From positions 82,015-146,014 of the forward strand of contig CAMTXH010000010.1 of assembly GCA_947085655.1 (NCBI GenBank): a stretch of 64,000 nucleotides of DNA. The letters run 5' to 3'. The notes beneath the pieces are model-generated. The model was not told where the DNA came from, did not search any database, and saw only the letters and a list, made by a program, of their open reading frames with translations. The stretch comes from an uncultured Omnitrophica bacterium (GTDB lineage: Bacteria; Omnitrophota; Gorgyraeia; JACQQV01). Shown one piece after another: positions 23,726-46,545 of the stretch; within the stretch, counting starts at the first letter, position 1, and the number at the start of each line of letters is the position of its first letter. The translations under genes were made by a program, and so were the position numbers.

Positions 23726-23737
23726 GGAGAAACACCG

Positions 23738-24988: not shown

Positions 24989-24996
24989 CATGGTCA

Positions 24997-25725: not shown

Positions 25726-25752
25726 ATGAGAATTCCCTCTTTCAAAAACACT

Positions 25753-26349
25753 TTACCTTTTCTGCAGAGCTCCCCGAACCTGTGCAGGGTTTCCGTAAGC
25801 GACAACCTCCTCTGGAATGTCGCGAGTGACAACACTCCCTGAGCCAATCAAACTCCCTGCACCCACATGGATGCCCGGCAGGAGAATAACCCCCGCACCA
25901 ATTTTTGCTCCCCGGTGAATATGAGGCCCAGGGAAGTTCTTTAAGGCGATATACTTGTCATTGGTCGTCACCACGCCGGGACCGATAAAAACGTCGTCCT
26001 CCACAACGGTATATTGTGCGAGATAGACCTGATTATGAAGTTTGACGCGATTTCCGATCCGGCATCCATAGTCAATGATTGAATGACTCCAAATGCAGAC
26101 CTCGTCGCCAATCTGGTTTTCTTCGCGGATGACAACATGATGTCCAGTCGCAAGCTTTGCACCGATGCGTGTGCCCGCATAGATGACGGTTCCGGAACGG
26201 AGGATGGCGGCATCCCCGATGAATGTCTCCTTGTTTGCAATCTGCCGCGAGGGGAGGCATCCGATCAGGACGTCCGGATCCATCTGGACATCCTTTCCCA
26301 GCACCACATGAGAACCAAAGGATCGAGAAGGCCGTGTTTTCTTTCTCAT
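25753..26349 (-). CDS. left-handed beta-helix sugar N-acetyltransferase (WbpD/PglD/NeuD-like hexapeptide transferase)
   Basis: repeated hexapeptide [LIV]-G-x-x-x-x pattern (IGDAAIL, IGAKLATG, IGNRVKL, IGPGVVT, IGAGVIL, VGAGSLIGSGSVV). Confidence 0.7.
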   Translation of the reverse strand: MRKKTRPSRSFGSHVVLGKDVQMDPDVLIGCLPSRQIANKETFIGDAAILRSGTVIYAGTRIGAKLATGHHVVIREENQIGDEVCIWSHSIIDYGCRIGNRVKLHNQVYLAQYTVVEDDVFIGPGVVTTNDKYIALKNFPGPHIHRGAKIGAGVILLPGIHVGAGSLIGSGSVVTRDIPEEVVAYGNPAQVRGALQKR

Positions 26350-27380: not shown

Positions 27381-29310
27381 ATGAATAGGTCGTTGCAGGG
27401 CGCTCTTCGGCCGGCCTCCGATCGATAAAGGTTCGGTGCCACAGTTCAAGATTGAGAAGCGCCCAGAGCCGGAACCTGTGGTCCCGACGTCTTTCGCGAT
27501 GCTCCCTCAAAAGCTTTTCGATGGCGCTCCGCTTAAACAGACCCCGCCGCAGCGTCACAGGGTCGAGAAGGACCTCTTCAACCAACCTCCTCAGACTGGA
27601 ACGGAACCAATGGTCGATCGGAACCGCAAAGCCCATTTTTCGTCTGTTCAGGACAGCGCGAGGCAGACGATCCGAGACGATTTCCCTTAACAGAAATTTT
27701 GTCTGAAATCGATGAAGTTTAAAATCAGCCGGCATCTGGGCAATGGTCTCCAAAAAAATATGGTCTAGGAAGGGCGATCGAATTTCCAGTCCATGCGCCA
27801 TACTGGCGATATCCATCTTCACCAGTAGGTCTTCAGGAAGATACGATTGAGTATCCGCTTTAAGAAGCTGATCCACCACCGATGTCGTCTCTGTGCGGCG
27901 TAAGATTTCCAGGAGAAACTGGCCTGCAACACGATCCCTCACGTGGGCGTTGAAATGATCGGCATAGAGCTGTTCCTTCTCGCGGGTTGAAAAAATGCTC
28001 ACCCAACGCAGATAGCGTTCTTCCGAATTGGGAAACTCCACCAAGGCCTCCAGAAAATTGAGGGGGCGGCGCCAACGCTTTGGATCACTCCTCGGTCCAT
28101 GATCTGCAAGCCATTGACAAAGAGACCTTGCCGATCGGAGCACGGGACGTGGGAGGCGGCTGAGGGCCATTGCCAATTGCGCCCCCCGGTACCGGTCATA
28201 TCCTGCGAAGGCCTCATCCCCCCCATCCCCGCTCAAGGCGACCTTCACATGCCGGCGCGTCAACTGTGAGACATAGTAAGTCGGGATGCAGGAGGAATCT
28301 CCGAAGGGCTCATTATAGTGCCAGATCAATTTCGGAAGGATCGCAGCCGCATCGGGCCGAACAATCAGCTCATGGTGCTCCGTCCCGAAGTGCCGTGCCA
28401 CTTCCCGGGCGAATTTTAATTCACTGTAATCCGACTCCTCGAATCCGATGCTGAACGTCCGGACGGATTGGCCGGAGCATTCACGGATCAGGGCAACGAT
28501 TGTGCTTGAATCAAGGCCGCCGCTCAAAAGAACCCCAAGGGGCACATCACTCCGCAGCCGGAGCCGGACCGCCTCCGAAAGAAGGGACCAGATCTTCTCC
28601 CGCCAGGCCTCCCGCGAATGTATTTGCTTGGGCTCATAGGACAGAGACCAGTATCGCTGGACCGTCACGCCATGACGATCACAACGCATCCAGTGGGCCG
28701 GTGGAAGCTTCATAATTCCTTCAAACATGGTGAAGGGAGACGGTGTATATCCGTACGTCAGATAATCGTCGATCGAGGCGGGCCGGGTCGTGCGGCTCAC
28801 GTCAGGCGACTCCAGAATCGCCTTGATCTCCGAGCCGAAAAAAAGGGTGCCGTTTCGGACTGCGTAAAAAAGCGGCTTCTTGCCAAGCCGGTCGCGCGCC
28901 AAAAAGAGCTGGCGGCTGTCCGAATCCCAGATGGCAAAGGCAAACATGCCTCTGGCCTCCTCCAGGCAATCGGATCCCTTGTCGCGGTAGAGATTCAAAA
29001 GGACCTCCGTATCACTCTGCGTCCGGAAGCGATAACCCTTCGAAAGGAGCGTTTCTTTCAGTTCACAATAGTTGTAGATCTCTCCGTTAAAGACAATGGT
29101 GAAGCGCCCCGTCTCATCCTGCATCGGCTGTTTGCCGCCGGAGAGGTCGATAATGGAGAGTCGTCTGTGTCCCAGTCCGATCCGGCCGTCCACAAAAATG
29201 TCCTCATCGTCCGGTCCCCGGTGGGAGAGGACCCGGGCCATGCGCCGGACGAACGCAGGGTCTACCGGCTGCTCATTCTGGAAATTAAACTGTCCCGCAA
29301 TGCCGCACAC
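27367..29310 (-). CDS. asparagine synthase (glutamine-hydrolysing) family amidotransferase (AsnB/WbpS-like)
   Basis: GTG at 29308-29310 directly precedes CGIAGQF (the obligatory N-terminal Cys of class II glutamine amidotransferases); SGGLDSS PP-loop motif. Confidence 0.8.
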   Translation of the reverse strand: MCGIAGQFNFQNEQPVDPAFVRRMARVLSHRGPDDEDIFVDGRIGLGHRRLSIIDLSGGKQPMQDETGRFTIVFNGEIYNYCELKETLLSKGYRFRTQSDTEVLLNLYRDKGSDCLEEARGMFAFAIWDSDSRQLFLARDRLGKKPLFYAVRNGTLFFGSEIKAILESPDVSRTTRPASIDDYLTYGYTPSPFTMFEGIMKLPPAHWMRCDRHGVTVQRYWSLSYEPKQIHSREAWREKIWSLLSEAVRLRLRSDVPLGVLLSGGLDSSTIVALIRECSGQSVRTFSIGFEESDYSELKFAREVARHFGTEHHELIVRPDAAAILPKLIWHYNEPFGDSSCIPTYYVSQLTRRHVKVALSGDGGDEAFAGYDRYRGAQLAMALSRLPRPVLRSARSLCQWLADHGPRSDPKRWRRPLNFLEALVEFPNSEERYLRWVSIFSTREKEQLYADHFNAHVRDRVAGQFLLEILRRTETTSVVDQLLKADTQSYLPEDLLVKMDIASMAHGLEIRSPFLDHIFLETIAQMPADFKLHRFQTKFLLREIVSDRLPRAVLNRRKMGFAVPIDHWFRSSLRRLVEEVLLDPVTLRRGLFKRSAIEKLLREHRERRRDHRFRLWALLNLELWHRTFIDRRPAEERPATTYSYANE

Positions 29311-29320
29311 AAACGTTCTC

Positions 29321-30619
29321 CTACCAAAGTCCCAGACGCGCCGCGAATGCCGACGCCTGGAGACGGATGGCATCTGAATTCACAAAGAGAAGTGACATCG
29401 CCCCGAGCCAGCCGCCCGAAAGAACCGACGGAACCCACTTCCGCGAGAAAAACGAAAAGAATCTCGCCAGCGCGACGGCACCGAAGAGAATCAAAACCGG
29501 TTCAAAGGGCAACCGGTACCGCGGCGTCCCTTGAAAAACAAGACTGACGACGTGAAGATAGAGGAGCGGAACATACAACACCCACAAGTCCTGAAAATGC
29601 CTGAGCGATGCCGCCATCCCCCACAGGATAAAAGGCAGAAGAAATCCGTAGGTCGGGTTAAACATCCCTCCCCCTAAAACCTCCCAGTCAAACGGCGACC
29701 AGAGCAAACCGATTTTTAACGCCTCAAGGCGGGGTATCCGGCCGGGGTTCTCACGGATAAACCGCCATCCCTCCCGAAACAGAAAACGGCTCCTGTCGAT
29801 TTCAGAGTCGAAATGAGCGTTGGCATAATGTGTCGTCTCATCATGTGTGATGAATCCGAGGAGTTTCCCTTCAGGCGGCCGATAAGAGGAATAAAAGGTA
29901 ACCCCTCCGTTTGTAGAGATCGGGGTCCATTGTCCGTATCGATGAAGATTCCGAAGCTCCCAGGGAAGGAGAACAAGATAGAAGGCCAAAAACATTCCCA
30001 AGGAAAGACCGAATCGTCTGTGCCACGACCACGAACGCCTTGTGAGGATTCCCCCCATGAGAAACACTGGAAAGAGGACGATGCTTGTTTTGGTTAGACT
30101 CGCCAATCCCAGACAAATCCCCAATACGCCCGATGTCCTCCAGCCATCTCCCTGATAGACCCGGAGAAGAAGATAGAGTGCTGTGATGAAGAGAAAGGTA
30201 AAAAGAGACTCCGACAGAACCATCGAAGAGACCTTAATCAATGAAAGGGAAAACACGCACAAAAGAAGCGACAAAAGCGCAAGCCGCGGTCCCAAAATCC
30301 TCTTTCCGATCAGATAGGTCAAGGCACAGGTTGCGGTTCCCAAGAACGCCTGAATGATCAGAACAGGAAACAGATTCCGTCCGAATACTCTGTATATGAG
30401 AGAGAGGAAGATCGGGTACAAGGGGGGATGGAAGAAATCGAGTTCCCTGAGATCTTCCCCGCCCGAAGCCAGCAACCAGCCGGTGGCATCGTACCAGGTC
30501 GCATCTCCCTGGAGGGTCTGGCCGGCATGCATGCCGGCGCTCCATAGCCGCAGAAAAAGTGCAAGGCCCAGCAGAAACATCACCCCCCACCCCTCCTTTT
30601 TCCGGAACAAGGTCTCCAT
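29321..30619 (-). CDS. GT-C glycosyltransferase, ArnT-like (PMT_2 family); paralogue of 23738..24988
   Basis: polytopic; QGDATWYDATGWLLASG first-loop motif; C-terminal GTPRYRLPFEP matches paralogue. Confidence 0.6.
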   Translation of the reverse strand: METLFRKKEGWGVMFLLGLALFLRLWSAGMHAGQTLQGDATWYDATGWLLASGGEDLRELDFFHPPLYPIFLSLIYRVFGRNLFPVLIIQAFLGTATCALTYLIGKRILGPRLALLSLLLCVFSLSLIKVSSMVLSESLFTFLFITALYLLLRVYQGDGWRTSGVLGICLGLASLTKTSIVLFPVFLMGGILTRRSWSWHRRFGLSLGMFLAFYLVLLPWELRNLHRYGQWTPISTNGGVTFYSSYRPPEGKLLGFITHDETTHYANAHFDSEIDRSRFLFREGWRFIRENPGRIPRLEALKIGLLWSPFDWEVLGGGMFNPTYGFLLPFILWGMAASLRHFQDLWVLYVPLLYLHVVSLVFQGTPRYRLPFEPVLILFGAVALARFFSFFSRKWVPSVLSGGWLGAMSLLFVNSDAIRLQASAFAARLGLW

Positions 30620-30622
30620 TTC

Positions 30623-31573
30623 TCACACCTTCTCGGCGAACACGATCATCTTGGTAAAAGGAACGATGTAATAGGTCTTGTCATAGAACCCCAAAAGGCG
30701 GCTTGCGCTCTGGAGAAATCTGGCCGTCCCCTTGTGATAGAACTCCCAGCGCCTCAGGATCTTGCCGACCTTGAAATGACGGCCATACTGATGCACCTTC
30801 AAGACACGGAAACCGGTCTTTTGAAGCATCAAGGTCAGAGTTTTCTCTGAGAACAAGTAAAGGTGCTCCTTGACCCGTCGCATATCTTCCCACCTGCCTC
30901 CGAGGAGTCGCGCCAGAAGACTCCCCGCATTCGGGGTGGCGATGGTCACAACACCGCCGGGTCTTAAAAGGGCATGGACCTTCTGAAGGGCCGAGAAAGG
31001 ATCGTGGAAGTGTTCAATGACATCCAAAAGAACTCCTGCATCGAATGAGATGGGCGGCAGAACCTGCTCCTCAAATGATCCCTGGACAACATCGAGCCCC
31101 AGCCTGTGTCTGGCGTAGCGGACGGCGGCCTCAGAGATCTCCATACCGGTCACTTCCCACCCATGCCGTCTTGCAACTTCGAGAAAATACCCCGGGCCAC
31201 ATCCGATATCGAAGAGGTGGCCGGGCGACGTCAAAACTTGCAACCGCTGGACGACCTTTTCAAAGGACCGCTCGATCTCCTGACGTTCAGAGATATATTC
31301 GGCATACCCATACATGTAACCGTCAAATTGATAGAACTTCGGATTATGAAAATATTCCGACTGGGAATAGATCTTTTCAACTTCCTCCCGGACGAGGCGT
31401 GGATTCACGTAGATCAACCCGCATTTTCGGCAGCGCACGATTTGGAAACCGTCGATGCGGTAAAGCCGTGTCGCATCCTCTGCACCGCAGAGGTTGCAGG
31501 GGACGATTTCCAGTCGTTGCTGGCCTTCTTTTGTCCGGAGCGCCTTTTCCTTTATCGTCGTTTCAGGCATCAT
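30623..31573 (-). CDS. class I SAM-dependent methyltransferase with N-terminal Cys4 zinc ribbon
   Basis: CNLCGAEDA...CRKCG ribbon; LFDIGCGPGYF motif I; LLDVIEHFHDP motif II. Confidence 0.7.
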   Translation of the reverse strand: MMPETTIKEKALRTKEGQQRLEIVPCNLCGAEDATRLYRIDGFQIVRCRKCGLIYVNPRLVREEVEKIYSQSEYFHNPKFYQFDGYMYGYAEYISERQEIERSFEKVVQRLQVLTSPGHLFDIGCGPGYFLEVARRHGWEVTGMEISEAAVRYARHRLGLDVVQGSFEEQVLPPISFDAGVLLDVIEHFHDPFSALQKVHALLRPGGVVTIATPNAGSLLARLLGGRWEDMRRVKEHLYLFSEKTLTLMLQKTGFRVLKVHQYGRHFKVGKILRRWEFYHKGTARFLQSASRLLGFYDKTYYIVPFTKMIVFAEKV

Positions 31574-35434: not shown

Positions 35435-36469
35435 TTAGATCCGGCCTATGTACTCAAAAATCGGATCATGCGGCATCTTTTCCGAAAAGAAAAGCCAGCG
35501 TCTCGGGTACGAATTGGGCCTCGTAAAAGCAGGGGAGATTCTGAAGTGGAGTCTCTTCTCCGGGTCCCAAACGGGATAATCCAATAGGGTAATGTCCGAA
35601 TCATAAAGCTGGGACGACTGGACGCGATTCACGGTGAAGAAGAACCTCGCCGTCTTAAAGACGGGGGACTCCATGTAATATTCGAACCACTGCCGCTTCA
35701 TCTCTCCGAAGGAGGTAAAATTCGTCACAAGATCCGACGATTCCCGGCCCAACCGGTCATAACAGGGAATCGGGACAAGGATAAAATCGTACTGCCGAAT
35801 GAAATCTCTTGTGATTTCCTTTTGGTCCAAAAATTCTTTGACCCCCGCGATCCGCGCTTCGGGAAGATAACTTCCCAGAAAGTAGTAGGCCAGAATCAAC
35901 TGCGCCGAGAAATCCACAAGGATGTGATGGGATTGGGGCCATTCCTGCTTGACCAGCCCTGAGAAAACGCCGTAACTGCTCCCGATATCCAGAGTGATAA
36001 AATCATCTGCAAGATGTTTTCCGAGTATTTCCTTGAGAAGACCGGTGAGATAGACATGTTTGAACCACCGGTGGGTGTAGCGATAACCTTGATATTGAAA
36101 GACGCTGGGATTCCCGACGTCGGGGCAAGGGTGTCTTTTTAAAAGGTCGGTATATTTTGCCTCTTCAAGGACCTTAAAACACTCAATCAGATGCCTCCGG
36201 TCGCCGCGTCTGCCGCCGCCCAAAAAATTCCTCGGGTCCAAGGCATGCATGTCATAATTAGGCGTATCCGGCACAAAGATATGCAGCCGCCTGAAATTGG
36301 AAAGGGCCTCTTTGTTCAGCAACCCATCCCGGTGGATGAGGCGATCCGGTTCGCTCTCCAGGCGCTCGCGCCATGTCTCACAAAGGTCTTCCCCGTAGCG
36401 GGCTGCGCCATCCAACGCCCGGTGGCTTTCCAGCTCGGCCTGAATCTGATTGAGGAGGTCGTTTTTCAT
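35435..36469 (-). CDS. methyltransferase-fold protein (possible divergent CmoB-like/FkbM-like transferase), translationally coupled to cmoA-like gene
   Basis: ATGA overlap with cmoA-like stop at 36466-36469; ITLDIGSSYGVF resembles SAM motif I (CmoB ILDVGCGSGY) at equivalent position; otherwise no canonical CmoB blocks. Confidence 0.4.
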   Translation of the reverse strand: MKNDLLNQIQAELESHRALDGAARYGEDLCETWRERLESEPDRLIHRDGLLNKEALSNFRRLHIFVPDTPNYDMHALDPRNFLGGGRRGDRRHLIECFKVLEEAKYTDLLKRHPCPDVGNPSVFQYQGYRYTHRWFKHVYLTGLLKEILGKHLADDFITLDIGSSYGVFSGLVKQEWPQSHHILVDFSAQLILAYYFLGSYLPEARIAGVKEFLDQKEITRDFIRQYDFILVPIPCYDRLGRESSDLVTNFTSFGEMKRQWFEYYMESPVFKTARFFFTVNRVQSSQLYDSDITLLDYPVWDPEKRLHFRISPAFTRPNSYPRRWLFFSEKMPHDPIFEYIGRI

Positions 36470-37239
36470 ACCTCGTCCAACTCAACTCTTGTATTTTTCT
36501 TGAGGCACAAAAAACCGGCAAAATTGTACCACTGAAAAAAGGTATCGACCGCCTGAAACCCGTTTCGCTTGAATAATTGAACATTTTCCTCGATCCGGTA
36601 GGGAACCAGGACATTTTCCAGGGCTTCGCGTTTGCGCCCGATTTCCGCGTCCGAATAGCCGTTTCTCCTTTTGAAGTCATAATACAGTTCCACAAAAAGC
36701 CGGTTCGTATCGGTGTTGTTTGTCAAAATTTTCTCCAAAACCAGCAAAATCCCGTTATCGACCAGAGCGTGGTGAATCGAACGGATCAGACGGTCGCGCA
36801 TGAGCGGCCTGATAAACTGAAGGGTCCAGCACATCGTCACGACACTGGCATTTTGCATCGGGACCTCCCCGTTCAGATCGGCATAGGCGATCTCAACGAC
36901 GCCGTCCAAGCCGATTCGGCTCACCTTTTCTCTCGCCTTTGAGATCATCGGTTCCGAATTGTCATAACCGATCAGGTGTTTTCCCGTTTTCTTCATGTCG
37001 CGGCCGATATTCGTCAAGGTCGTCCCCGTCGAACACCCCAGGTCGTAGATATTCGTCCCCTTGATATAGAACTTCTTGGTGAGTTCCTTAACGATGGCTT
37101 GCTGCTCCAGATAAAAAGGAACGCTCCGGACAAGCATGTCGTCAAAGACCGCCGCTACGTCGGGCCCAAACTCAAAATCACTGACCCGGGATGCTGTTTT
37201 CGCAAAGATCGTGTCTGCTTTCATCGTCTCTGTTTTCAT
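36466..37239 (-). CDS. cmoA: carboxy-S-adenosyl-L-methionine synthase homologue (CmoA family)
   Basis: end-to-end match to E. coli CmoA as recalled: DTIFAKTASRVSDFEFGPDVAAVFDDMLVRSVPFY, YDLGCSTG, LQFI, HHDFKRxNGYS with conserved Arg, FQWYNFAGF; ORF 36466..37257 trimmed to MKAD... Confidence 0.7.
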   Translation of the reverse strand: MKTETMKADTIFAKTASRVSDFEFGPDVAAVFDDMLVRSVPFYLEQQAIVKELTKKFYIKGTNIYDLGCSTGTTLTNIGRDMKKTGKHLIGYDNSEPMISKAREKVSRIGLDGVVEIAYADLNGEVPMQNASVVTMCWTLQFIRPLMRDRLIRSIHHALVDNGILLVLEKILTNNTDTNRLFVELYYDFKRRNGYSDAEIGRKREALENVLVPYRIEENVQLFKRNGFQAVDTFFQWYNFAGFLCLKKNTRVELDEV

Positions 37240-37240
37240 C

Positions 37241-38548
37241 TCATCTCTCCTTTGCATTATGAACCGTTAAACTCTGGATCAGCGCAGTGACCCGCTCATG
37301 TGTTTTACCATCCAAATAGTGGCAGATCCGTTCCTTTAAGGCAGCCCTCTCTTGGCGCTCCAAAGAGGGGTCTTTGAGATACTCATTCACCCTCTGGATC
37401 AACTCAAATTCATCCCTCGCGATCCGGCTCGCCCCTGTCTCGCGGACAGGACGAAAGTGGTACTCCCAGTGTCTTTTGAGAATGTGTGTTTTGAAGGCCC
37501 CCGCATTTTGGGGATCGAAGGCGACATTGACAACGGGCGTGTCCAAAAGGGCTGCCTCGATCGTCACCGTTGAAGCAACGTTGACGAGGACATCGCTGTG
37601 TTTGATCAGATTGGCGACGTGCCTCGATTCCGCCAGGTCAGGATCCCAACCAAGTGTTGGTGAAATACGGCCCTTCAGATCGAGGGTCACATCGGGACAC
37701 GCCGGTAACTCCCACTTCGTCTCCTTCTGGAACATGATCGGATGGAACCGGCAAACCAGTTGCGACGGTTCGGCCAGTTTACCCTCACGCATCGCCCGGC
37801 GCAGGTGTTCGACCACATGAAGGCAATCTCCGCGCAGATTGCGCAGATAATACCCTGCAATCGTAATGAGTTTCTTCCGGGGATCCAATCCAAGCCGCTT
37901 AAAGAAGGCGTCTCTCGACTCAAATGTCTGTTCCTCGTAATAATGGTCAAACTGGAGGGGGCCGACGACCCATATCCGATTTTCCGGAAAGTGCCAAGTC
38001 CGAACGACTTCCTCTTTCATTAATGGATTCCAGACGGCCAGATAACCGGGTCTTACCCGCAGGGTGTCTTTGATCGGACTGAAGTTGTCCCAACTGTGCA
38101 CGACACAGAGCACCGGTATCTTCCAATTCCTTGCCTCCCGGATCAGGGGGAGATCCTGTGTTGTGTGGAGCCCGCATCCCGCCGTAACGAGCAGGGCGGG
38201 TTGATGCTTTTGAAACATTTCCCCATATTGTATCGGCTCCGAACGCGTCGCCAGCCAATGGTGCATCTTCATCGCCAAAAGGTAAGGCGTACGGGAGCCC
38301 CTGAGTCTCCTCCCGCATTTCCATAAAAGAGCCCTGCAGAATCCCTCCTCTTTGTCGGCAGCACCCATCGGCTCAAACAGGACCTGTCCATTTAAGGCGA
38401 ATTCCTTAACGAAAGAAGGGTCACGAGCGGCCGTCGAGACGATAACCGCTCGCATGTCCCGCCTGGATAAAATCCCTGCCAAGAGGCGGCTCCGTAACAG
38501 GGATCTTGCGTAACGTCCGATCGGAATCGAAAAGAAAATGGTCTTCAT
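37241..38548 (-). CDS. GT-B fold transferase, possibly CDP-alcohol/glycerophosphotransferase (TagB/TagF Glyphos_transf-like) or capsule phosphotransferase
   Basis: FHP...then LIKHSDVLVNVASTVTIEAALLDTPVVNV pattern resembling TagF HP ... SDxLITDYSS...KPII; low certainty. Confidence 0.35.
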   Translation of the reverse strand: MKTIFFSIPIGRYARSLLRSRLLAGILSRRDMRAVIVSTAARDPSFVKEFALNGQVLFEPMGAADKEEGFCRALLWKCGRRLRGSRTPYLLAMKMHHWLATRSEPIQYGEMFQKHQPALLVTAGCGLHTTQDLPLIREARNWKIPVLCVVHSWDNFSPIKDTLRVRPGYLAVWNPLMKEEVVRTWHFPENRIWVVGPLQFDHYYEEQTFESRDAFFKRLGLDPRKKLITIAGYYLRNLRGDCLHVVEHLRRAMREGKLAEPSQLVCRFHPIMFQKETKWELPACPDVTLDLKGRISPTLGWDPDLAESRHVANLIKHSDVLVNVASTVTIEAALLDTPVVNVAFDPQNAGAFKTHILKRHWEYHFRPVRETGASRIARDEFELIQRVNEYLKDPSLERQERAALKERICHYLDGKTHERVTALIQSLTVHNAKER

Positions 38549-39474
38549 TTTCTCATGGACCGAAGTGCCACGGAGACCTGATCCGCCAGAAACCCGAAAA
38601 GAATCACCGAGAAGGAGGCGATCAAGACAATGATGGAGGATCCGCGGATTCCTCCGGAAACGATAAAATTCGTCAAACCCAGGAATATGCCGGCGGCACC
38701 CAAGAAAAGCCCCGCCGGCAAAAAGATGCGGAGAGGACTGAACAGCATGACCATCCTCGTGATAATTAGGAGAAAACGCAACCCCTCCCGGAAAGGCCGA
38801 AGCTTGCTTTTGCCCAGGCGCCTCTTTCCGATGGAATCCAAAGGGACATATTTCACAAAGTAGCCCGCCTTCAAAAATGAAAGGGTCGCCGTCGTCGGAT
38901 ACGAGTAAGTATTTGGGAAAAGATGAAGAAACTCCAGGGCCTTCTGTCGCTTGATCGCCCTGAAACCCGAGGTGAGATCCAGAATTTTCGCATCAGAGAG
39001 ATACTCGGCGACTTTAATCAACATCTTGTTCCCCGCCGTACGGAAACGGGAAAGTTCTGCGCGCTTCGTCCGTGCCCCAATCACCATGTCGTATTCACCG
39101 ATGTCTTTGATCAACTCCGGAACCGCCTCCGGAGGATGCTGGCCGTCGCCGTCCATCAACACCACAATATCCCCCTTGGCCCGTTGAATTCCCGTCTTGA
39201 CGGCCGCTCCATTCCCCAAATTGTAGGGGTGACGGACGACGTCCGCACCCGCGGCCTTTGCCCGTGCCGCCGTTTGATCCTCTGATCCGTCGTCGATGAC
39301 CAGCACCTGGTCGGCACAGCCGAGGACGAGGATCCGCTTGACCACCTCGGCAATCGCATCCTCCTCGTTGTAACAGGGAAGGAGGATGCTGATTTCTTTC
39401 TCTTGAGGGGTTTTAGTCCCCTCGGACGGTGAAGTCGACGACTTTTGATCCAGCAATGGCGATTTTTCGAACAT
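38545..39474 (-). CDS. GT2 polyprenyl-phosphate sugar transferase (GtrB/ArnC-like with C-terminal TM helices)
   Basis: ISILLPCYNEE...LVIDDGSEDQT...LMDGDGQHPP; C-terminal hydrophobic helices; 62-nt overlap with upstream ORF suggests alternative internal start. Confidence 0.75.
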   Translation of the reverse strand: MFEKSPLLDQKSSTSPSEGTKTPQEKEISILLPCYNEEDAIAEVVKRILVLGCADQVLVIDDGSEDQTAARAKAAGADVVRHPYNLGNGAAVKTGIQRAKGDIVVLMDGDGQHPPEAVPELIKDIGEYDMVIGARTKRAELSRFRTAGNKMLIKVAEYLSDAKILDLTSGFRAIKRQKALEFLHLFPNTYSYPTTATLSFLKAGYFVKYVPLDSIGKRRLGKSKLRPFREGLRFLLIITRMVMLFSPLRIFLPAGLFLGAAGIFLGLTNFIVSGGIRGSSIIVLIASFSVILFGFLADQVSVALRSMRK

Positions 39475-40915
39475 CTGTCCAGCTCCTTATTCCGAAAAGG
39501 CGCTTTCCGACATAGGAAGGTCTCAGGTAGAAGCGCCGGTAGGCGTCCCGTATATATTTGGCAAGGTCCTCTTTCTTCACAGACGTATAAAGCTCGTTAA
39601 ACAACCCCTCCGTATGCAGGACGGTCAGATCGCTCTGCGAGCCGTCTTTTATCTCCGGATACTTGGCCTGAACTTCGGCAAACAGTGGGGTTCCCGGATA
39701 GGGGGTGCAGATCCCGAAGGTGGCCGTGGTCGGATCGATCTCCATCGTAAATTCGATCGTCCGCTGAATGCTCTCATCCGTATCGTCCGGCATTCCCAGC
39801 ATGATGTGGGCATGGGTGTCAATCCCGACCTCATGCGCCCATTTGAAGGTCTCCACGGTTTGCTCCACCTTAAAACCCTTTTTCACGCGGTCCAGGACAT
39901 TCTGATTTCCCGATTCGACGCCGAACTTCATGACGGAGCATCCTGCCCGCTTCATCCATTCCATCTGTTCTTTGTCCACCAGCCCCACCTTCGCATTGCA
40001 AATCCAGGGAAATTGATAGCCCCGCTCAATGACCCCCTTGCAGAACTCGATGTTGCGCCTTTTATGAACGGTCCATATCTCATCCCGGTAGTAGATCTCC
40101 CGGTAACCGTTCGAGAGAAAGTATTCAACCTCATCGAGCATCCGTTTCGCACTCTGGTATCTGAAATTGGGACCATGGAAAAAAGGCGCCGTACAGAAGG
40201 TGCATTTCGAAGGGCAACCCCTCGTCGTGACCGCCGTAATATAAGGGTACTGAATGACAAGGGGATTAAAATACCCGACATCCTTCGGAAGGAGCGAAAC
40301 ATCGACCATCGGATATTCATCAAGATTATCGATGAAATTCGGCTGAGGCGTTAAGACGGGCTCGCCGTTCTCCTGGAAGCCGATGCCCTTCACCGCCCTC
40401 CACTCCCCATTTCTCCCATGCAGAGCCCGGACAAGTTCTACAACGATTCCCTCGGGCTCATTGAGGACGATGATGTCAACGCCCTCCTTGCTCAAGGCAT
40501 ACTTTGGCATAAACGTGCCGTGGGACCCGAAAAGAATCGTCTTAAGGCGCGGGTTTTCAAGTTTAAACTGACGCAGCGTTTCCGCATCCTCGTTAAAAGT
40601 CATCGTTGCGGCATTCGCAACAATGAGATCGTAATGGTCCATTTTTCCGCGCAAGTCATCCGGGTGAATCCCTTCCGCCTGGGCATCGATCAGCGTCACA
40701 TCGTGACCGTCCTTCTTCAGAACGCTTGCGACGGACAAAAGGAAGTAGGGCGGAACCGTTCCCCCGCCGATCCGCTTCCCCTTGCACCAGCAACCGTAGA
40801 GGACATCCCGTACGATGTTCTTTGTCACGTAACTTGCCGGATTCAATGCAAGAATTCTCATGCCACTCCCCCTTCCTTTCTTAAGCGGACGATTCTCATG
40901 ACACCTTCTGCGCAA
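39413..40915 (-). CDS. B12-binding (class B) radical SAM enzyme
   Basis: N-terminal cobalamin-binding-like domain (MRILALNPASY..., DLIVANAATM), radical SAM CxxxCxxC as GCPSKCTFC; probable real start at MRILALN (about 40861). Confidence 0.75.
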   Translation of the reverse strand: MRRRCHENRPLKKGRGSGMRILALNPASYVTKNIVRDVLYGCWCKGKRIGGGTVPPYFLLSVASVLKKDGHDVTLIDAQAEGIHPDDLRGKMDHYDLIVANAATMTFNEDAETLRQFKLENPRLKTILFGSHGTFMPKYALSKEGVDIIVLNEPEGIVVELVRALHGRNGEWRAVKGIGFQENGEPVLTPQPNFIDNLDEYPMVDVSLLPKDVGYFNPLVIQYPYITAVTTRGCPSKCTFCTAPFFHGPNFRYQSAKRMLDEVEYFLSNGYREIYYRDEIWTVHKRRNIEFCKGVIERGYQFPWICNAKVGLVDKEQMEWMKRAGCSVMKFGVESGNQNVLDRVKKGFKVEQTVETFKWAHEVGIDTHAHIMLGMPDDTDESIQRTIEFTMEIDPTTATFGICTPYPGTPLFAEVQAKYPEIKDGSQSDLTVLHTEGLFNELYTSVKKEDLAKYIRDAYRRFYLRPSYVGKRLFGIRSWTDVRKIAIAGSKVVDFTVRGD

Positions 40916-41819
40916 CGACCCATTGATTCACTTTTTTCCCGGAAAACGACTGCGCAAGATAAATCAGGGCGATTCCGAAACGGACCCACCCGGACACTCC
41001 GATCCGCCCAACCGGATAGTCTTTCGGAATGCAGGCAGTCCGCTCGAAGCCGTTCTCGGTCAAAAGACGGTGCAGCGTTCGCTCTGTGAAGTAATGAAGA
41101 TGATAAGAAGGATAAAGTCTCGTGATTGGAAATTGGATTGTCCCGAAACTCAACCGATAGGACCAATGTCCGATCTGATAGAGAAGATTGTCGATGTTCA
41201 GGGTCTGGGTCATCAAGAGGCCCCCCGGTTTCAGAATTCTCCTGATCTCCACCAGACACGCCAATGGGTCCCGCAGGTGTTCCAAAACGTCCCAAAGCGT
41301 CACCACGTCAAAATGATTTTCCGGAAATGCGGCGTTCTGAAGCGTGCCCTGCGTAATGGAGAGCTCATATTGTTCCCTCGCACGCTGAACCGCGTAGGAG
41401 GAGATTTCGACGCCGCTGGGTCGCCATCCTCTTTTTTGCGCCATGTTCAAAAAGACCCCCATCGCGCAGCCCACATCAAGGAGAGCCCCTTTCGCGGGAG
41501 CGTGCGTCTCCAGAATCTCCAGCGCCTCCTCATAATCTTTGAGGTGCTCTTCACCCGCAATATCCCCCTCCTGATGCTTAAAATAATCCACCTCCCAATA
41601 CGTTTTGTCCTCGTAGAGATGTTTGAGCTCCTCTTCATCCGGCATCGGAAAGAGATACCGATGGCCGCACCGCGGACACGAAACGACGGAGTGGCTACGG
41701 GTCGGAAAGGGACGGATGCTCGGCAAGCGATAGCATGTCCGGTACCGCCCTTCCTGACAAAGGGGACAACTCCCTTTATTTGTTAAGTTCTGAGGGGGTA
41801 AAGTATCTTGAAGAAGCAA
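40896..41819 (-). CDS. class I SAM-dependent methyltransferase with N-terminal zinc ribbon; paralogue of 30623..31573
   Basis: TTG start verified at 41817-41819; CPLCQ...CPRCG ribbon; LLDVGCAMGVF motif I; DVVTLWDVLEHLRDP motif II. Confidence 0.7.
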   Translation of the reverse strand: MLLQDTLPPQNLTNKGSCPLCQEGRYRTCYRLPSIRPFPTRSHSVVSCPRCGHRYLFPMPDEEELKHLYEDKTYWEVDYFKHQEGDIAGEEHLKDYEEALEILETHAPAKGALLDVGCAMGVFLNMAQKRGWRPSGVEISSYAVQRAREQYELSITQGTLQNAAFPENHFDVVTLWDVLEHLRDPLACLVEIRRILKPGGLLMTQTLNIDNLLYQIGHWSYRLSFGTIQFPITRLYPSYHLHYFTERTLHRLLTENGFERTACIPKDYPVGRIGVSGWVRFGIALIYLAQSFSGKKVNQWVVAQKVS

Positions 41820-41948: not shown

Positions 41949-42923
41949 TCATTCTTTTGACTCGTAAGATTCAACCGCTGCACCCACCGCATGCCTTTCG
42001 GAAAGCGCCCAAAGGACCGTTTCCAGATAATCCGTTGTCAGCGGCATAAAATAACGGTCGTCTAACCAAACAGGGTTTAACAAAGTTCCCTCCTCGAGTC
42101 CACGGCATATCCTTTCGAAAACGGGACTTCCGAAAAACGCAACGCCGTACGAATAAAGGAACTGGGTCTTCCGGCTCATCCGGTGATGGTCATAATGTCC
42201 CTTTTCGTCGATTCTCTCCTCCAAAAATCCAAGGGCGCGCTTGAGCGATTCCAAAAGAACGGGATCTTTTGTCCGTTTCCAATAGTGCGCCAGACAACCG
42301 ACAATCAGGGAAAGATAGCCGACGTCAGCCCCTCCGTACTCGGGAAAATACCCTGACGACTCTTGAGAAGAAAGCAGCCTGGACAATTTCTCCTCGGAGG
42401 CACGCAGATAGGGGGTGTTGCTTGTCAAATGGTAAAGATTTAAAAGCGCGCAAGCCGCTGCCGCCATCTGATTGGAAACGTCCGGATTGTTATGGCGCAT
42501 CAGCCACTTTCCCGTTTTTTCAAGACGCTCGCCATCGCTCCTCCGGAGGAGAAGCATCGCTTCCGTGACGGCCCAGCAGGTAAAAGCGGTGGCGCAAAAC
42601 CCCCGTTCGTTCGGGTAGGCCTCATCCACGCTTCCGTCCCGGTGGCGACGCGAAATCCAAAATTCGATCGCCGCCTCTGCCCACTGCTTCACCTGTCCGT
42701 TCTGGTAATAAATGTTCCCGTCAAAATTCCCCTGATAGAGAAGCGCCAAGAGCCAGCACGCTTCCTGATACCGCGTATTCGGAAAGTCGATTGACTTGTA
42801 GTGCCAGTACCCGCGGTCGAAACATCCGAATGTCTCAGAAGAGGGATCCCGGTCGCCCAATCCCAATACGCGGGGCACCTGGCTTAAGACAATTTCATGG
42901 ATTCTCTCGAGAGACTCTTTCAT
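41949..42923 (-). CDS. uncharacterised soluble protein, paralogue of 17903..19585
   Basis: ETFGCFDRGYWHYKSIDFPNTRYQEACWLLALLY and EAYPNERGFCATAFTCWAVTEA blocks shared with the 560-aa paralogue. Confidence 0.4.
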   Translation of the reverse strand: MKESLERIHEIVLSQVPRVLGLGDRDPSSETFGCFDRGYWHYKSIDFPNTRYQEACWLLALLYQGNFDGNIYYQNGQVKQWAEAAIEFWISRRHRDGSVDEAYPNERGFCATAFTCWAVTEAMLLLRRSDGERLEKTGKWLMRHNNPDVSNQMAAAACALLNLYHLTSNTPYLRASEEKLSRLLSSQESSGYFPEYGGADVGYLSLIVGCLAHYWKRTKDPVLLESLKRALGFLEERIDEKGHYDHHRMSRKTQFLYSYGVAFFGSPVFERICRGLEEGTLLNPVWLDDRYFMPLTTDYLETVLWALSERHAVGAAVESYESKE

Positions 42924-44827
42924 GCGGTAACCGCCTCCCGGGGACAGGGAACCTTTTGATCCACAAAAACATCGAGCCAGATCTCAAGAATCAGTAGCGC
43001 CATCAGCTGTTTGTGATAAATGAGCGGTGAGGAATCCGCTTTCTCCAAAAGAGAGCGGAGCGTTTCCCACTCAAACCATCCTCTCCGCTTGATCCGTTCA
43101 ACGGAGAGATAGTCGCTACAGAGCTTTCTGAAAACGCTCTGAAATCTTCCCTCGAGCGGCATAAAGAAGGCCTGCTTCCTGCGTCTGGTCGTTTCGGGCG
43201 GAAGGATTCCTTTGAAGGCGCGCCGGAGCAGGATCTTGTTGACCCCCCCATGAATCTTCAAATGAAACGGAACGCGCCCCATCAATTCAACAATGCGATG
43301 ATCCAGATAAGGAACGCGCCCCTCCACGGAGTGCGCCATGGTCAGCTTATCCTGTTTAAAAAGGATATTGTCCGGAAGCCAAGAGGTCAGTTCCTGGCGC
43401 AGAAGCCAATTCGGGATGTCGTCTGTTTCGTTATCCATCAAAACATCTTCTGAATCTTTTTCACCTGTAAGAACCTCTTTGAATTGACCGGTATAAAGTC
43501 GATCCTTTTCCGCACCCGTAAAAAGAGAGACGACATGCAGATAGTTTTGCTTCGTATCTCCCAAGTGCCTTAGGAAAAAGGCAAGCCGTTTACGACCCTC
43601 AGTTCCCATCGAAGCGGGGTATTGGAAAAAGCGATCGATCAGAGACACGGGCATTCCTTCGACGAAGCGTCCCAAAGCGCTCCCGATGCGGGGAGGAATC
43701 CGGGATGCCCGGAGAAGTGTGTCCTGATGGACATATCCCCCCAACAATTCATCCGCGCCTTCGCCGGTGAGAACAACTTTGACATGACGGTGGGCGATTT
43801 GAGACAAAAGATAGGTCGGGACAACGATGGCATCCCCGACCGGCTCATCCAGATGCCACACGATCTTCGGAAGGAGAAAAAAGTCGTCGGGCTTGACCTC
43901 AACTTCGTGGTGGTCCGTCGCATACAGATCAGCGATGTGCCTGGCGCTTGCTGTTTCATCCTGTGATGTCCCGAATCCGACGGAGAAAGTCTTTCGGGGC
44001 GCGTGGTCCAGCGCTGCGACCAGGGAAACCACGGCACTCGAATCGAGTCCCCCGCTTAAGAAAGCCCCGATGGGGACGTCGCCCATGAGCTGAAGCCGGA
44101 CGGAATCCTTCAAGAGGTTATAAAACTCCTCCACAAACGCCTCCTCCGACATCTTTCGGTCTTCCTTCATTTCAAAATGCCAGTAAGGGCGCAGGGTCTC
44201 CTTCCCTTCCTGAAACGCCAGAAAATGCGCAGGGGGAAGCTTCCGGATGCCGGCAAAAAAGGTCCTGTTCCCGGGCACATACCGAAACGTCAGGTAATCG
44301 TCAATCGATCTAAAATCGAGTGTGCGATTGACCGCCTCGCACTGAAGGAGCGCTTTGAGTTCCGACGCAAAGAGAAAATCCCCGTTGACCCGCGTATAAT
44401 AGAGCGGTTTAATTCCCAGCCGGTCACGCGCCAAGAAAAACCGGCTCTGTGTTGAGTCCCATATCGCGAAAGCAAACATTCCGTTCAACCGGTCCAGACA
44501 GGATGTCCCGTATTCTTCGTAGGCATGAACAACGACTTCGCTGTCGGTCTTCGTGACAAAGCGATGGCCTTTTTGGGTCAGGAGTTCCCGTAGCTCGAGG
44601 TGGTTATAGATTTCGCCGTTAAAGACAAGTACCAAAGAACGGTCTTCATTAAAGAGGGGCTGACTTCCTGTTTGAAGATCCACGATGCTCAACCGGACAT
44701 TGCCTACGCCGGTTCCCTCCCTGTAGAAAAATCCTGATTCGTCAGGTCCGCGGTGGGCCATCGTTCCCGCCATGACCTTCAGCAGTTCCTCCGGGTAATC
44801 TCCCCTAAAACCGAAAATGCCGCACAT
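42920..44827 (-). CDS. asparagine synthase (glutamine-hydrolysing) family amidotransferase, second copy
   Basis: internal start MCGIFGF (ATG 44825-44827 overlapping upstream stop as TGATG); SGGLDSS PP-loop; long ORF 42920..45040 is an N-terminal over-extension. Confidence 0.8.
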   Translation of the reverse strand: MCGIFGFRGDYPEELLKVMAGTMAHRGPDESGFFYREGTGVGNVRLSIVDLQTGSQPLFNEDRSLVLVFNGEIYNHLELRELLTQKGHRFVTKTDSEVVVHAYEEYGTSCLDRLNGMFAFAIWDSTQSRFFLARDRLGIKPLYYTRVNGDFLFASELKALLQCEAVNRTLDFRSIDDYLTFRYVPGNRTFFAGIRKLPPAHFLAFQEGKETLRPYWHFEMKEDRKMSEEAFVEEFYNLLKDSVRLQLMGDVPIGAFLSGGLDSSAVVSLVAALDHAPRKTFSVGFGTSQDETASARHIADLYATDHHEVEVKPDDFFLLPKIVWHLDEPVGDAIVVPTYLLSQIAHRHVKVVLTGEGADELLGGYVHQDTLLRASRIPPRIGSALGRFVEGMPVSLIDRFFQYPASMGTEGRKRLAFFLRHLGDTKQNYLHVVSLFTGAEKDRLYTGQFKEVLTGEKDSEDVLMDNETDDIPNWLLRQELTSWLPDNILFKQDKLTMAHSVEGRVPYLDHRIVELMGRVPFHLKIHGGVNKILLRRAFKGILPPETTRRRKQAFFMPLEGRFQSVFRKLCSDYLSVERIKRRGWFEWETLRSLLEKADSSPLIYHKQLMALLILEIWLDVFVDQKVPCPREAVTA

Positions 44828-46545
44828 CAGCCCGAACGCCCCATCCGCCCCTTCGGACAGTAGATTTTGATGCCGTAGTAAGGAAAATAACCGCCTATTT
44901 CCCGGTACGTAAATTTGGGCGCAAAAGCAGTCGCATCGCCCAGTTCCCTTGCAAGCACATAATGTTCCTCGATAAAGTCGAAGAGTCTCCTTCGAGAACT
45001 GGTGTAAGGAAAGTAGGTGACGGGAGTGACAATGATGCATTTCGGCCGTTTCAATCGGATCTGGTTGATTAAATCCTCTTCGATCTCCGTTCTTTCATCC
45101 GGTGTGAGGCCTGCGAATTTAAATTTTTTGTCCTCCACTATGCCTGCTCGAAGGGTCACAAATTCATCCTTCACAACCGGATCTCTTTGAGAAAGAAAGT
45201 AATAGATGGGCTCGATGCTGACGACAAAAATTCCGTCTTGGGGTGCTGTTTGTTGCCTGATATACGTAACCGTATCTTCGTACATTTTTTTAATATGGGG
45301 GGGGACCTGAATCCCCCTCGCCACATTGATGGAAAGTGGAACCTTTCCACGCATTTTCTGAAGGGGCATATCAACATAGCTGCTGAAGAGAATAAAGTAG
45401 CCCACAAAGCAGGCAATGCCTGCTTGAAGCAGGCGAAGGGCACTCGGTCTGGAAAGAAGGGTCTGGAGATTCCAGAGCCGGTAAAAGAAATAAATCAACA
45501 GCACAAAAGGAACCTGGAGCAGAAAACCGATTCCGTTCGAACCTGTGATGAGCGGTTGGGCGTAAATAAGAACCGAGAAAAGGGAAAGAAAAAGAACCGC
45601 GCGGTCCTTCCTGAAGAAAAGGAAACCCGCCCCGGCACAGACAACAGGGGACCACCAGAGAGACACCACAACCAGGTGCCAGACCGCCTCCTTGACCTTG
45701 GGGAAAAACCCCGAAAGATGCGCCAACCCGGACCAAAATGTCTCGCTGAACAGGTTCGGATAGGACGCATGATAACGCCATACGCCCACACCGGAAGTGG
45801 TCGGAAAGAGATTCATCAAGAGTTTCTGTGCGGGCATGTGGGTCAGGAGATAGATGAGAAAAGGAGCCACTAGACAGAAAGCGCCTAAACCATAATATCC
45901 GAGAAGCGGCATCGCGTTGAAAGTTCTCGGATTTCTTTTAATTTGATCGATGAGCTCCGTGATCACCACAAATAAAATGACGGATCCAAAAATGCCGACG
46001 CCCATGGGAAGCGGTTTCGTCAAAAGTCCCACCCCTGCGCCAAGTCCCATCCAAAAAGGCCGGCTCCTTCCCCCGGGACGTTTCAGAACCGAAAGAAAAA
46101 GGGCGACCACCCAAAGCGCTGAAAGCGTCCCAAAAATATGGTTGTAGGAGTGGGGGGGCAGAGAAAGATATGAAAAGGATGCCAAGCTTGCGATGCCCGC
46201 CCAAAAAGGAGGCATGAAAAAGCGGGCGATCCGGAAGGCAAGACCCACACCAATGGCTCCGACAAAAATATAGACAAGTCTCACCAGTTGCACGCTGACG
46301 CCGAACCAATTGAACAGGGTTCCAAAAATAAAAGGGGCCAAAGGGCCGTAATTCCAGCTGAAATCGCGGTAAACCAATTCCCCAAGACTCGCCCGCCAGA
46401 AGACAAAAAGGTTCACCCCTTCATCGCCCGTAAAAAGGTCGTATTGAAAAATAAGGAGTTTTCCCAACAGAAAAAGTCCGACGGCGGCAAATAACACAAA
46501 CCTATCTTTCATTTCCGACCTTTCTTGCGACGATTGTAAAATCAT
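44827..46545 (-). CDS. polytopic membrane protein with C-terminal soluble domain, possible GT-C glycosyltransferase
   Basis: 572 aa; about 12 hydrophobic segments in first 400 aa, hydrophilic C-terminal 150 aa; no diagnostic motif found. Confidence 0.35.
   Translation of the reverse strand: MILQSSQERSEMKDRFVLFAAVGLFLLGKLLIFQYDLFTGDEGVNLFVFWRASLGELVYRDFSWNYGPLAPFIFGTLFNWFGVSVQLVRLVYIFVGAIGVGLAFRIARFFMPPFWAGIASLASFSYLSLPPHSYNHIFGTLSALWVVALFLSVLKRPGGRSRPFWMGLGAGVGLLTKPLPMGVGIFGSVILFVVITELIDQIKRNPRTFNAMPLLGYYGLGAFCLVAPFLIYLLTHMPAQKLLMNLFPTTSGVGVWRYHASYPNLFSETFWSGLAHLSGFFPKVKEAVWHLVVVSLWWSPVVCAGAGFLFFRKDRAVLFLSLFSVLIYAQPLITGSNGIGFLLQVPFVLLIYFFYRLWNLQTLLSRPSALRLLQAGIACFVGYFILFSSYVDMPLQKMRGKVPLSINVARGIQVPPHIKKMYEDTVTYIRQQTAPQDGIFVVSIEPIYYFLSQRDPVVKDEFVTLRAGIVEDKKFKFAGLTPDERTEIEEDLINQIRLKRPKCIIVTPVTYFPYTSSRRRLFDFIEEHYVLARELGDATAFAPKFTYREIGGYFPYYGIKIYCPKGRMGRSG

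Follow-up and report, generated by a model that had tools for sequence, protein, structure and literature searches.

A radical SAM enzyme family with a B12-binding domain is conserved beside a polyprenyl-phosphate sugar synthase-like glycosyltransferase across bacterial and archaeal phyla

The radical SAM gene and its glycan operon

The stretch of DNA analyzed in this study (hereafter the window; 64,000 bp, positions 82,015 to 146,014 of contig CAMTXH010000010.1, assembly GCA_947085655.1) stems from an uncultured Omnitrophica bacterium, and we focused on one of its genes, here called rSAM, encoding a radical S-adenosylmethionine (SAM) enzyme with a B12-binding domain. An original prediction made from the sequence alone had proposed its product as a candidate sugar C-methyltransferase within a glycan operon. 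The proposed setting was confirmed, as nearly the whole window is occupied by a single surface-glycan super-operon of about 61 kb on the minus strand. It harbors a set of genes for initiation, polymerization, and export (a Wzi-like protein, a WbaP/PglC-type initiating transferase, Wzx-type and MurJ-type flippases, and a Wzy_C protein), a nonulosonic acid branch (NeuB, a cytidylyltransferase, and oxidoreductases), and a branch for 3-deoxy-D-manno-octulosonic acid (Kdo) with KdsB, KdsC-like, and KdtA-like proteins, in addition to two AsnB amidotransferases, many glycosyltransferases of families 4 (GT4) and 2 (GT2), and at least five membrane proteins of the GT-C class (PMT_2-type). All genes flanking rSAM lie on the minus strand and either overlap or are separated by short gaps. 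No convincing internal promoter was detected around rSAM, promoter-like sites being at or below the shuffle expectation, and the terminator-like sites (31 vs. about 15.5 in shuffled sequences) were all short, weak stems located mostly within coding sequence.

The mechanically called open reading frame (ORF; 39413..40915, minus strand) is present in the window with an uninterrupted translation and opens at a TTG codon at position 40915. The true start is likely the ATG at 40861, since this codon is preceded by an GGAAGGGGGAG ribosome-binding site, close homologues have a length of 480–485 amino acids (aa) with alignments beginning at this Met (MRIL/MKIL), and the identical protein in the public record GCA_964374045.1 was called at 482 aa; the stop codon of the upstream gene occupies positions 40896–40898. 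Both features that had been read from the translation, a B12-binding-like N-terminal domain and a radical SAM core with the motif GCPSKCTFC, were recovered by Pfam profile search above the respective cutoffs (Table 1). rSAM belongs to the radical SAM superfamily (PF04055) and displays the class B architecture, in which a PF02310 domain is fused to the radical SAM core.

When 35 family members (44–86% identity) were aligned, the three cysteines of the cluster motif (C216, C220, and C223; C-x3-C-x2-C), Cys385, and a family-specific N-terminal motif, RDVLYGCWCKGKRIGG, proved to be invariant. The AlphaFold2 (AF2) model built on this alignment reached a mean predicted local distance difference test score (pLDDT) of 89.6 and a predicted TM-score (pTM) of 0.90, showing a Rossmann-like N-domain and a TIM-barrel-type core, with the region of the N-terminal motif as its sole low-confidence part (pLDDT <50, residues 19–28). 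Foldseek matches of this model were, in ranked order, AprD4, MgmA, TsrM, TokK, OxsB, and CysS, with both domains covered for the last five.

A discrete family of very wide but patchy distribution

With more than 1000 relatives at E ≤ 1e-10 in a word-indexed search, among which 120 exceeded 560 bits, rSAM can be regarded as a real conserved gene. The best 120 of these more than 1000 relatives were full-length (about 482 aa), 45–86% identical, and distributed over many phyla. In an exhaustive profile search, about two dozen 50%-identity clusters scored above about 450 bits and aligned from residue 1; beneath them followed a continuum of HpnJ-like paralogues of about 470 aa (320–390 bits), which lack the RDVLYGCWCKGKRIGG motif and align only from about residue 30–37. 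Altogether, 19,923 representatives scored E ≤ 1e-30 in this search. The HpnJ model was matched at E ≤ 1e-60 by 75 of 82 next-closest paralogue representatives, the best of them reaching only 5.9e-141, below the equivalog level. Within a very large HpnJ/BchE-like clade that is mostly uncharacterized, the rSAM family thus forms a discrete branch, with the N-terminal motif and Cys385 as its hallmarks.

In a scan using one genome per species, at least 196 species encoded an rSAM relative. Bacterial carriers include Omnitrophota, Planctomycetota, Latescibacterota, Armatimonadota, Fibrobacterota, and Sumerlaeota, furthermore Vampirovibrio, Clostridia, Desulfarculaceae, Nitrospinota, Alpha- and Gammaproteobacteria, and bacteria of the candidate phyla radiation (CPR), while Methanosarcinales, Woesearchaeota, Nanoarchaeota, and Aenigmatarchaeota were found among the archaea. 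The distribution is very wide but patchy. Since the family has a well-defined set of conserved partners (see below) and is encoded by at least one cultured organism, Thalassospira lucentensis Mv1 (NZ_CP191544.1; locus L051, radical SAM gene at 10001–11461), it is experimentally tractable.

A GT2 glycosyltransferase as conserved genomic partner

As described in the original prediction, rSAM is flanked by a GT2 gene and by a gene for a Zn-ribbon SAM methyltransferase (Table 1). In the GT2 protein, two hydrophobic helices (about residues 234–304) lie C-terminal of a GT-A domain. Its best NCBIfam matches were AglJ (132.9 bits), PpgS (91.4), PgfS (84.6), Dol-P-hexose transferase (84.2), and ArnC (67.2), all below the equivalog cutoffs; each of these top-scoring partial matches is a polyprenyl-phosphate monosaccharide synthase. 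Judged from these similarities, the GT2 protein resembles a polyprenyl-phosphate sugar synthase, a type that its architecture fits.

For the analysis of gene neighborhoods, 80 loci were kept from the 196-species scan, 57 of them with full flanks, and the proteins of the window were used as queries against the ORFs of these loci. A GT2 orthologue was found in 68 of the 80 loci (median 190 bits), in 64 cases within 3 kb and in 67 of 68 on the same strand, with a median gap of 322 bp to rSAM. Among the loci with full flanks, 51 of 57 from many phyla had it at a distance of at most 5 kb. An independent all-against-all clustering resulted in the same ranking of neighbors. Typical gene orders are (alpha/alpha)6 > rSAM > GT2, membrane protein > GT2 > rSAM > membrane protein, and rSAM > (alpha/alpha)6 > AsnB, with which six individually inspected loci agree. 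The conserved neighborhood of rSAM is the main new result of this study, and the GT2 gene in it provides the family with a clear, testable genomic partner. Of the two flanking genes originally offered as context, the link to the GT2 gene held up, whereas that to the Zn-ribbon methyltransferase did not: it was matched in 26 of the 80 loci with a median of 30.6 bits, and these matches are not orthologous.

The second most conserved partner is a 324-aa protein predicted to fold as an (alpha/alpha)6 toroid, which was found in 36 of the 80 loci (median 238 bits), in 35 of them within 3 kb. Foldseek hits for its model were weak and mixed (E about 3e-4, TM 0.5–0.6), comprising GH76, the GH88 unsaturated glucuronyl hydrolase, N-acylglucosamine 2-epimerase, polysaccharide lyase, AprG, and terpene cyclases, and its sequence revealed only weak Pec_lyase and LanC-like matches. 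The protein is probably carbohydrate-active and possibly directed at uronates; because the fold matches are weak and heterogeneous, we did not assign a more specific function. A 560-aa paralogue encoded elsewhere in the window shares the N-terminal QVPR..L.DR...S..GCFDR.YW motif. AsnB-type amidotransferases, which amidate carboxylates in glycan pathways (e.g., WbpS and MoeF5), were detected in 30 of the 80 loci, 24 of them within 5 kb.

The density of large polytopic proteins within 5 kb of the GT2–rSAM pair is about 1.8 times that at 5–10 kb, and those adjoining the pair are GT-C proteins wherever Pfam recognizes them, namely YfhO, PMT/PMT_2, and DUF2079 in bacteria. An STT3/AglB oligosaccharyltransferase is encoded directly upstream of GT2–rSAM in three loci from archaea (Nanoarchaeota, Woesearchaeota, and Methanosarcinales). 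By analogy with these loci, we conjecture that the polytopic membrane protein next to AsnB in the window is a candidate GT-C-type transferase; it had no Pfam match, and BLASTP against the PMT_2 paralogues of the window was not significant (E 0.059 and 0.24).

Comparison with named families and solved structures

In a search of rSAM against NCBIfam, the cutoff of no named family was reached. The best named match was HpnJ (TIGR03471; 236.6 bits vs. a cutoff of 577.6, E 5e-70, residues 54–456), followed by BchE (TIGR02026; 187.1 vs. 481.35), ApyD (143.5 vs. 750), AprD4 (NF033070; 131.2 vs. 500), PhpK (109.3 vs. 600), and HpnR (98.7 vs. 650). These nearest named relatives mix non-methylases (HpnJ, BchE, and AprD4) and methylases (PhpK and HpnR); ApyD is regarded as a methylase as well. 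With scores far under the cutoffs, the identities HpnJ, BchE, ApyD, AprD4, PhpK, ladderane enzyme, Mmp10-type, and HpnR were all rejected. The same applies to the names "BchE cyclase" and "YgiQ" in Joint Genome Institute (JGI) annotations, which we consider transfer artefacts; several rSAM homologues bear the name of BchE, the anaerobic Mg-protoporphyrin IX monomethyl ester cyclase. Hopanoid genes (shc, hpnH, hpnI, and hpnK) were not among the about 50 ORFs annotated in the window, which had no (bacterio)chlorophyll (bch) genes either, the only hpnK-type candidate being a YdjC-like ORF 21 kb from rSAM on the opposite strand. A porphyrin or hopanoid enzyme located here by chance, the case that had been named as speaking against the original prediction, is not what was found.

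Among solved structures, AprD4 (PDB 6fd2), the radical SAM 1,2-diol dehydratase of apramycin biosynthesis, is the closest in sequence as well as in fold (phmmer E 4e-28; profile E 1.6e-43; Foldseek E 1.5e-25; TMq 0.76), at an identity of 20–21%. HpnJ and BchE are not methylases (PMC9204698), and AprD4 and ArsL bind no cobalamin despite being placed in the similarity networks of B12-type radical SAM enzymes (PMC12931638). For this reason, the domain pair alone implies neither a methyltransferase nor cobalamin binding. Nearness to HpnJ does not fix the chemistry either, since the methylases MoeK5 (PMC9204698, PMC12931638) and Fom3 (PMC9204698) sit beside HpnJ in such networks.

Proposed function

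Based on these findings, rSAM most likely modifies a sugar of the surface glycan by radical chemistry. We tentatively consider the family, which is discrete, widespread, and uncharacterized, as B12-binding-domain radical SAM enzymes working with an AglJ/GtrB/ArnC-like GT2, a reading that falls only a little short of an even chance. C-methylation would be the most likely single chemistry, again just below the point where it would outweigh everything else together; it is favored because it is the commonest function of this architecture and because of the canonical B12 domain, the hydrophobic Met87 (see below), and the association with AsnB as in MoeF5/MoeK5. The fold of rSAM, close to the cobalamin-bound class B enzymes MgmA, TsrM, TokK, OxsB, and CysS, also supports this reading. 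The label "sugar C-methyltransferase" of the original prediction is reasonable as the leading hypothesis, not as an established function, and does not follow from the domain pair, with HpnJ, BchE, and AprD4 being non-methylases.

According to the proposed mechanism, GT2 would act at the cytoplasmic face, where it would load a sugar onto a polyprenyl phosphate (undecaprenyl phosphate or dolichyl phosphate), and rSAM would reductively cleave SAM at the [4Fe-4S] cluster held by C216, C220, and C223, so that the 5'-deoxyadenosyl radical could take a hydrogen from an unactivated carbon of the GT2-loaded sugar. The substrate radical would most likely be quenched by a methyl group from methylcobalamin in the N-terminal domain (class B C-methylation). 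At many loci, the AsnB-type amidotransferase and the (alpha/alpha)6 protein may act on the same lipid-linked sugar unit, which may yield a branched uronamide by analogy with moenuronamide, made via MoeF5 and MoeK5. The modified unit would then be flipped and transferred to the surface glycan by a GT-C enzyme of the PMT_2, YfhO, or AglB type.

For the lipid-linked stage, which we infer, there are several precedents. ArnD acts on Und-P-Ara4FN, and MoeK5 acts on a lipid-phosphoglycerate-bound uronamide. In moenomycin biosynthesis, a glycosyltransferase uses a lipid-phosphate acceptor, an AsnB-like enzyme performs carboxamidation, and a B12-type radical SAM enzyme C-methylates the same sugar, resulting in a 4-C-methyl uronamide. 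The gene set for moenomycin unit F (MoeK5/MoeF5/MoeGT1), likened to the rSAM locus by pathway description, is analogous; moenomycin, however, is an actinomycete antibiotic, whereas the rSAM locus is a cell-surface glycan operon of an Omnitrophota-like metagenome-assembled genome with a GT2 of the polyprenyl-phosphate synthase type. Likewise by description, the aminoglycoside class B sugar C-methyltransferases GenK, GenD1, and Fms7 combine B12-binding and radical SAM domains and methylate unactivated sugar carbons, but their substrates are soluble pseudo-oligosaccharides in antibiotic clusters. Characterized sugar-acting B12-type radical SAM enzymes belong to antibiotic pathways (GenK, GenD1, Fms7, and MoeK5) or hopanoid pathways (HpnJ), and to our knowledge none has been characterized for cell-surface glycans. 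Our searches of the literature on O-antigen, polysaccharide, and polyprenyl-phosphate contexts yielded no characterized B12-type radical SAM homologue. A further precedent is HpnJ, which has the same two-domain architecture as rSAM and acts on hopanoid-bound glucosamine, i.e., on a sugar on a lipid, after a GT2 step (PMC9204698).

The strongest competitor of C-methylation, though unlikely, is a non-methylating rearrangement of the HpnJ/OxsB type, i.e., a ring contraction, carbocyclization, or other skeletal change of the GT2-delivered sugar, in which cobalamin, if bound, would not serve as methyl donor. This would parallel the conversion of bacteriohopanetetrol glucosamine into the cyclitol ether by HpnI (a GT2) and HpnJ, to the pairing of which GT2 and rSAM bear a resemblance. 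It is favored by HpnJ and BchE, both non-methylases, being the two best-matching named families, by the HpnJ-like nature of the next-closest paralogues, by deacetylases (Polysacc_deac_1 and PIG-L) adjoining rSAM at some loci, and by the YdjC-like gene in the window. However, the score of rSAM lies far under the HpnJ equivalog cutoff, hopanoid genes are absent from the window, methylases are also reported beside HpnJ in similarity networks, and the hydrophobic Met at the position of TokK Trp76 suits methylases better. HpnJ, which catalyzes a ring contraction and works with HpnI and HpnK, is furthermore devoid of the N-terminal YGCWCKGKR motif, its match to rSAM beginning only at residue 54, and the GT2 of rSAM is AglJ/PpgS-like, with no match to HpnI and only a weak one to HpnB.

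Less probable still is a cobalamin-independent radical dehydratase like AprD4, which would remove a hydroxyl group from a vicinal diol to give a deoxy-keto sugar, then reduced or aminated by another enzyme, with the N-domain as a structural Rossmann remnant. AprD4 resembles rSAM in that an N-domain precedes the radical SAM core and its substrate is a sugar; it binds no cobalamin (PMC12931638), is the closest solved structure, and has the EDAE segment in common with rSAM, as well as an N-terminal stretch of weak similarity. Yet the identity is low, the NCBIfam AprD4 model stays far below its cutoff, AprD4 belongs to secondary metabolism and not to a surface glycan, and PF02310 is passed by rSAM but not by the AprD4 fragment described below. 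Moreover, no AprD3-like reductase was found as conserved neighbor, NAD-dependent epimerases/dehydratases occurring in 9 of the 80 loci (median about 4 kb) and aminotransferases in 8. Other or unforeseen functions together seem slightly more remote than such a dehydratase. The weakest alternative, a highly improbable one, is that rSAM alters the carrier or another lipid, e.g., by methylating or cyclizing a polyprenyl or isoprenoid chain as in archaeal tetraether lipids (Gmm and GrsA/B) or hopanoids (HpnP and HpnR), for which MoeK5-related B12-type radical SAM enzymes methylating archaeal lipids (PMC11214058), the polyprenyl phosphate at hand as predicted substrate of GT2, and the presence of the family in archaea and bacteria with unusual envelopes could be cited, but all conserved partners (GT2, the (alpha/alpha)6 fold resembling carbohydrate-active proteins, AsnB, and GT-C) are of carbohydrate type, isoprenoid biosynthesis genes are absent nearby, and HpnR scores low.

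Returning to C-methylation, we asked what speaks for cobalamin in the N-domain of rSAM. While rSAM passes PF02310, a control fragment of AprD4 (residues 40–414, rebuilt from an alignment and slightly truncated) had no match to it at E ≤ 1. In profile alignment, the rSAM loop T86-M87-x-F89-x-E91-D92, with M87, E91, and D92 invariant among the 35 sequences, corresponds to the loop at the lower face of cobalamin in TokK and OxsB. Met87 falls on TokK Trp76, and the polar Asn186 of OxsB aligns with S85 (Ser or Ala in the family), two residues before Met87. A hydrophobic residue under the lower face of cobalamin (TokK Trp76 and Mmp10 Leu322) is associated with radical methylases (PMC12931638). Taken together, the PF02310 control and the Met87 alignment, both indirect, tilt us toward a genuine cofactor domain.

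Several points weigh against the proposed function. Neither HpnJ nor BchE, which head the NCBIfam ranking, is a methylase, and the same is true of AprD4, the top match among structures. The correspondence of Met87 and Trp76 is one of profile alignment only. Since these enzymes bind cobalamin in a base-off/His-off manner (PMC12931638), a diagnostic sequence motif does not exist, so that cobalamin binding is not provable by any motif, and, as AprD4 demonstrates, an N-domain of this kind can lack the cofactor. Within the window, neither a cobalamin riboswitch, nor any other Rfam family, nor cobamide genes were found, and carriers of the family include CPR and DPANN organisms, in which cobamide synthesis is unlikely. 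Six of the 57 loci with full flanks, including that of the cultured Thalassospira, have no GT2 gene. Apart from that, rSAM could act on a nucleotide sugar or on the completed glycan instead of on a lipid-linked sugar.

In a wider and more speculative sense, less probable than the partnership itself, the loci may represent an unrecognized surface-glycosylation module, in which GT2 would make a polyprenyl-phosphate-linked sugar, a cobalamin-dependent rSAM would C-methylate it or rearrange its skeleton on the carrier, often together with AsnB and the (alpha/alpha)6 protein, and a GT-C enzyme (AglB, YfhO, or PMT_2) would transfer it to proteins or glycans, spread over more than 15 bacterial phyla, CPR, DPANN, and Methanosarcinales. 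If a C-methylated or rearranged sugar is indeed formed on a lipid carrier, radical chemistry would join the known ways of decorating envelopes, N- or O-glycans, unusual branched sugars would be expected in uncultured phyla, and the structure of surface glycans would depend on cobamide supply. If the proposed function holds true, one branch of the HpnJ/BchE-like clade (about 20,000 representative clusters, E ≤ 1e-30) would be given a function.

Further genes of the window and additional observations

Table 1. Positions and characteristics of rSAM, its domains and motifs, and other genes discussed in the text. Positions refer to the window, except for the archaeal STT3/AglB genes, for which locus and position are given.
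Feature	Position	Strand	Size or residues	Characteristics
Radical SAM gene with B12-binding domain (rSAM)	39413..40861	-	482 aa	PF02310 and PF04055 above cutoff
B12-binding (Rossmann-like) domain of rSAM	40433..40765	-	residues 33-143	PF02310, 41.1 bits, cutoff 32.1, E 1.8e-10
Radical SAM core of rSAM	39749..40231	-	residues 211-371	PF04055, 77.9 bits, cutoff 29.5
Cluster motif GCPSKCTFC	40193-40219	-	residues 215-223	read from translation
Family-specific N-terminal motif RDVLYGCWCKGKRIGG	40763..40810	-	residues 18-33	invariant in 35-sequence alignment
GT2 glycosyltransferase	38545-39474	-		PF00535, 101 bits; overlaps rSAM 3' end by 62 nt
Class I SAM methyltransferase	40896-41819	-		Methyltransf_23, 98 bits; N-terminal four-Cys CPLC...CPRC Zn ribbon
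(alpha/alpha)6-toroid protein	41949-42923	-	324 aa	no Pfam family; AF2 pLDDT 94
AsnB-type glutamine amidotransferase	42920-44827	-	635 aa (public call)	mechanical ORF to 45040
Polytopic membrane protein	44827-46545	-		about 10 transmembrane (TM) helices and C-terminal soluble domain; DE motif after TM1
Paralogue of (alpha/alpha)6 protein	17903-19585	-	560 aa	same ORFs matched in 36 loci, median 194 bits
Nitroreductase-family gene	19591-20337			next after 560-aa paralogue
CmoA-like carboxy-S-adenosylmethionine synthase	36466-37257	-		TIGR00740, 232 bits, cutoff 193.3
NanM-family putative sugar O-methyltransferase	35435-36469	-		CmoA-like gene directly upstream
Second radical SAM enzyme, SPASM type	9496-10542	-		PF04055, 57.5 bits; PF13186, 55.8 bits; between GT4 and Wzx-type flippase
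YdjC-like deacetylase-family gene	62383-63246	+		PF04794, 154.7 bits
Archaeal STT3/AglB genes	L057 6037-9063; L064 6013-9024; L065 5547-9029

The Zn ribbon of the methyltransferase upstream of rSAM is conserved in a paralogue of the window (30623–31573; E 4e-35 from residue 18) and in similar methyltransferases at other loci. In the public record, the gene starts at an internal Met (249 aa, L001 5217–5966), by which the Zn ribbon is cut off; since the ribbon aligns with the paralogue and the other loci, the longer, TTG-initiated ORF is probably correct.

The genes of the Kdo branch (KdsB and KdtA) and those for CmoA, NanM, and MurJ were discarded as partners of rSAM with 0–2 matches each in the 80 loci; the CmoA-like and NanM-family genes had none. 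CmoA normally serves in the synthesis of the tRNA modification cmo5U; the CmoA-like protein of the operon may therefore supply carboxy-SAM for carboxymethylating a sugar. In the region from 14402 to 30619 (minus strand), small GT2 genes are unusually dense (15853–16548, 20988–21974, and 24997–25725) and interleaved with genes for GT-C/PMT_2-type proteins (14402–15853, 16545–17906, 21971–23725, 23738–25051, and 29321–30619), an arrangement suggesting that several lipid-phosphate-sugar decoration systems run in parallel in this one operon. The YdjC-like gene is the only sizeable gene on the plus strand and is located at the edge of the operon, where the GC content falls to 0.46. The YdjC-like family also includes HpnK, the partner of HpnJ.

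At the other loci, the STT3/AglB protein of L065 was found to be fused to a C-terminal PPIC-type rotamase domain. The Woesearchaeota locus L008 carries a carbamoyltransferase gene (PF02543) and an OTCase-like gene just downstream. A second B12-type radical SAM gene is present in 11 of the 80 loci. At least two such paralogues lie side by side, with methyltransferase genes between them, in L008 (1808–5302), L007 (1666–3285), L068, and L084, the latter two harboring four to five copies. Finally, giant relatives of 900–2600 aa with two to four B12-type radical SAM modules were found among the proteins P0271–P0382, e.g., P0274 with 2331 aa and P0314 with 2633 aa.

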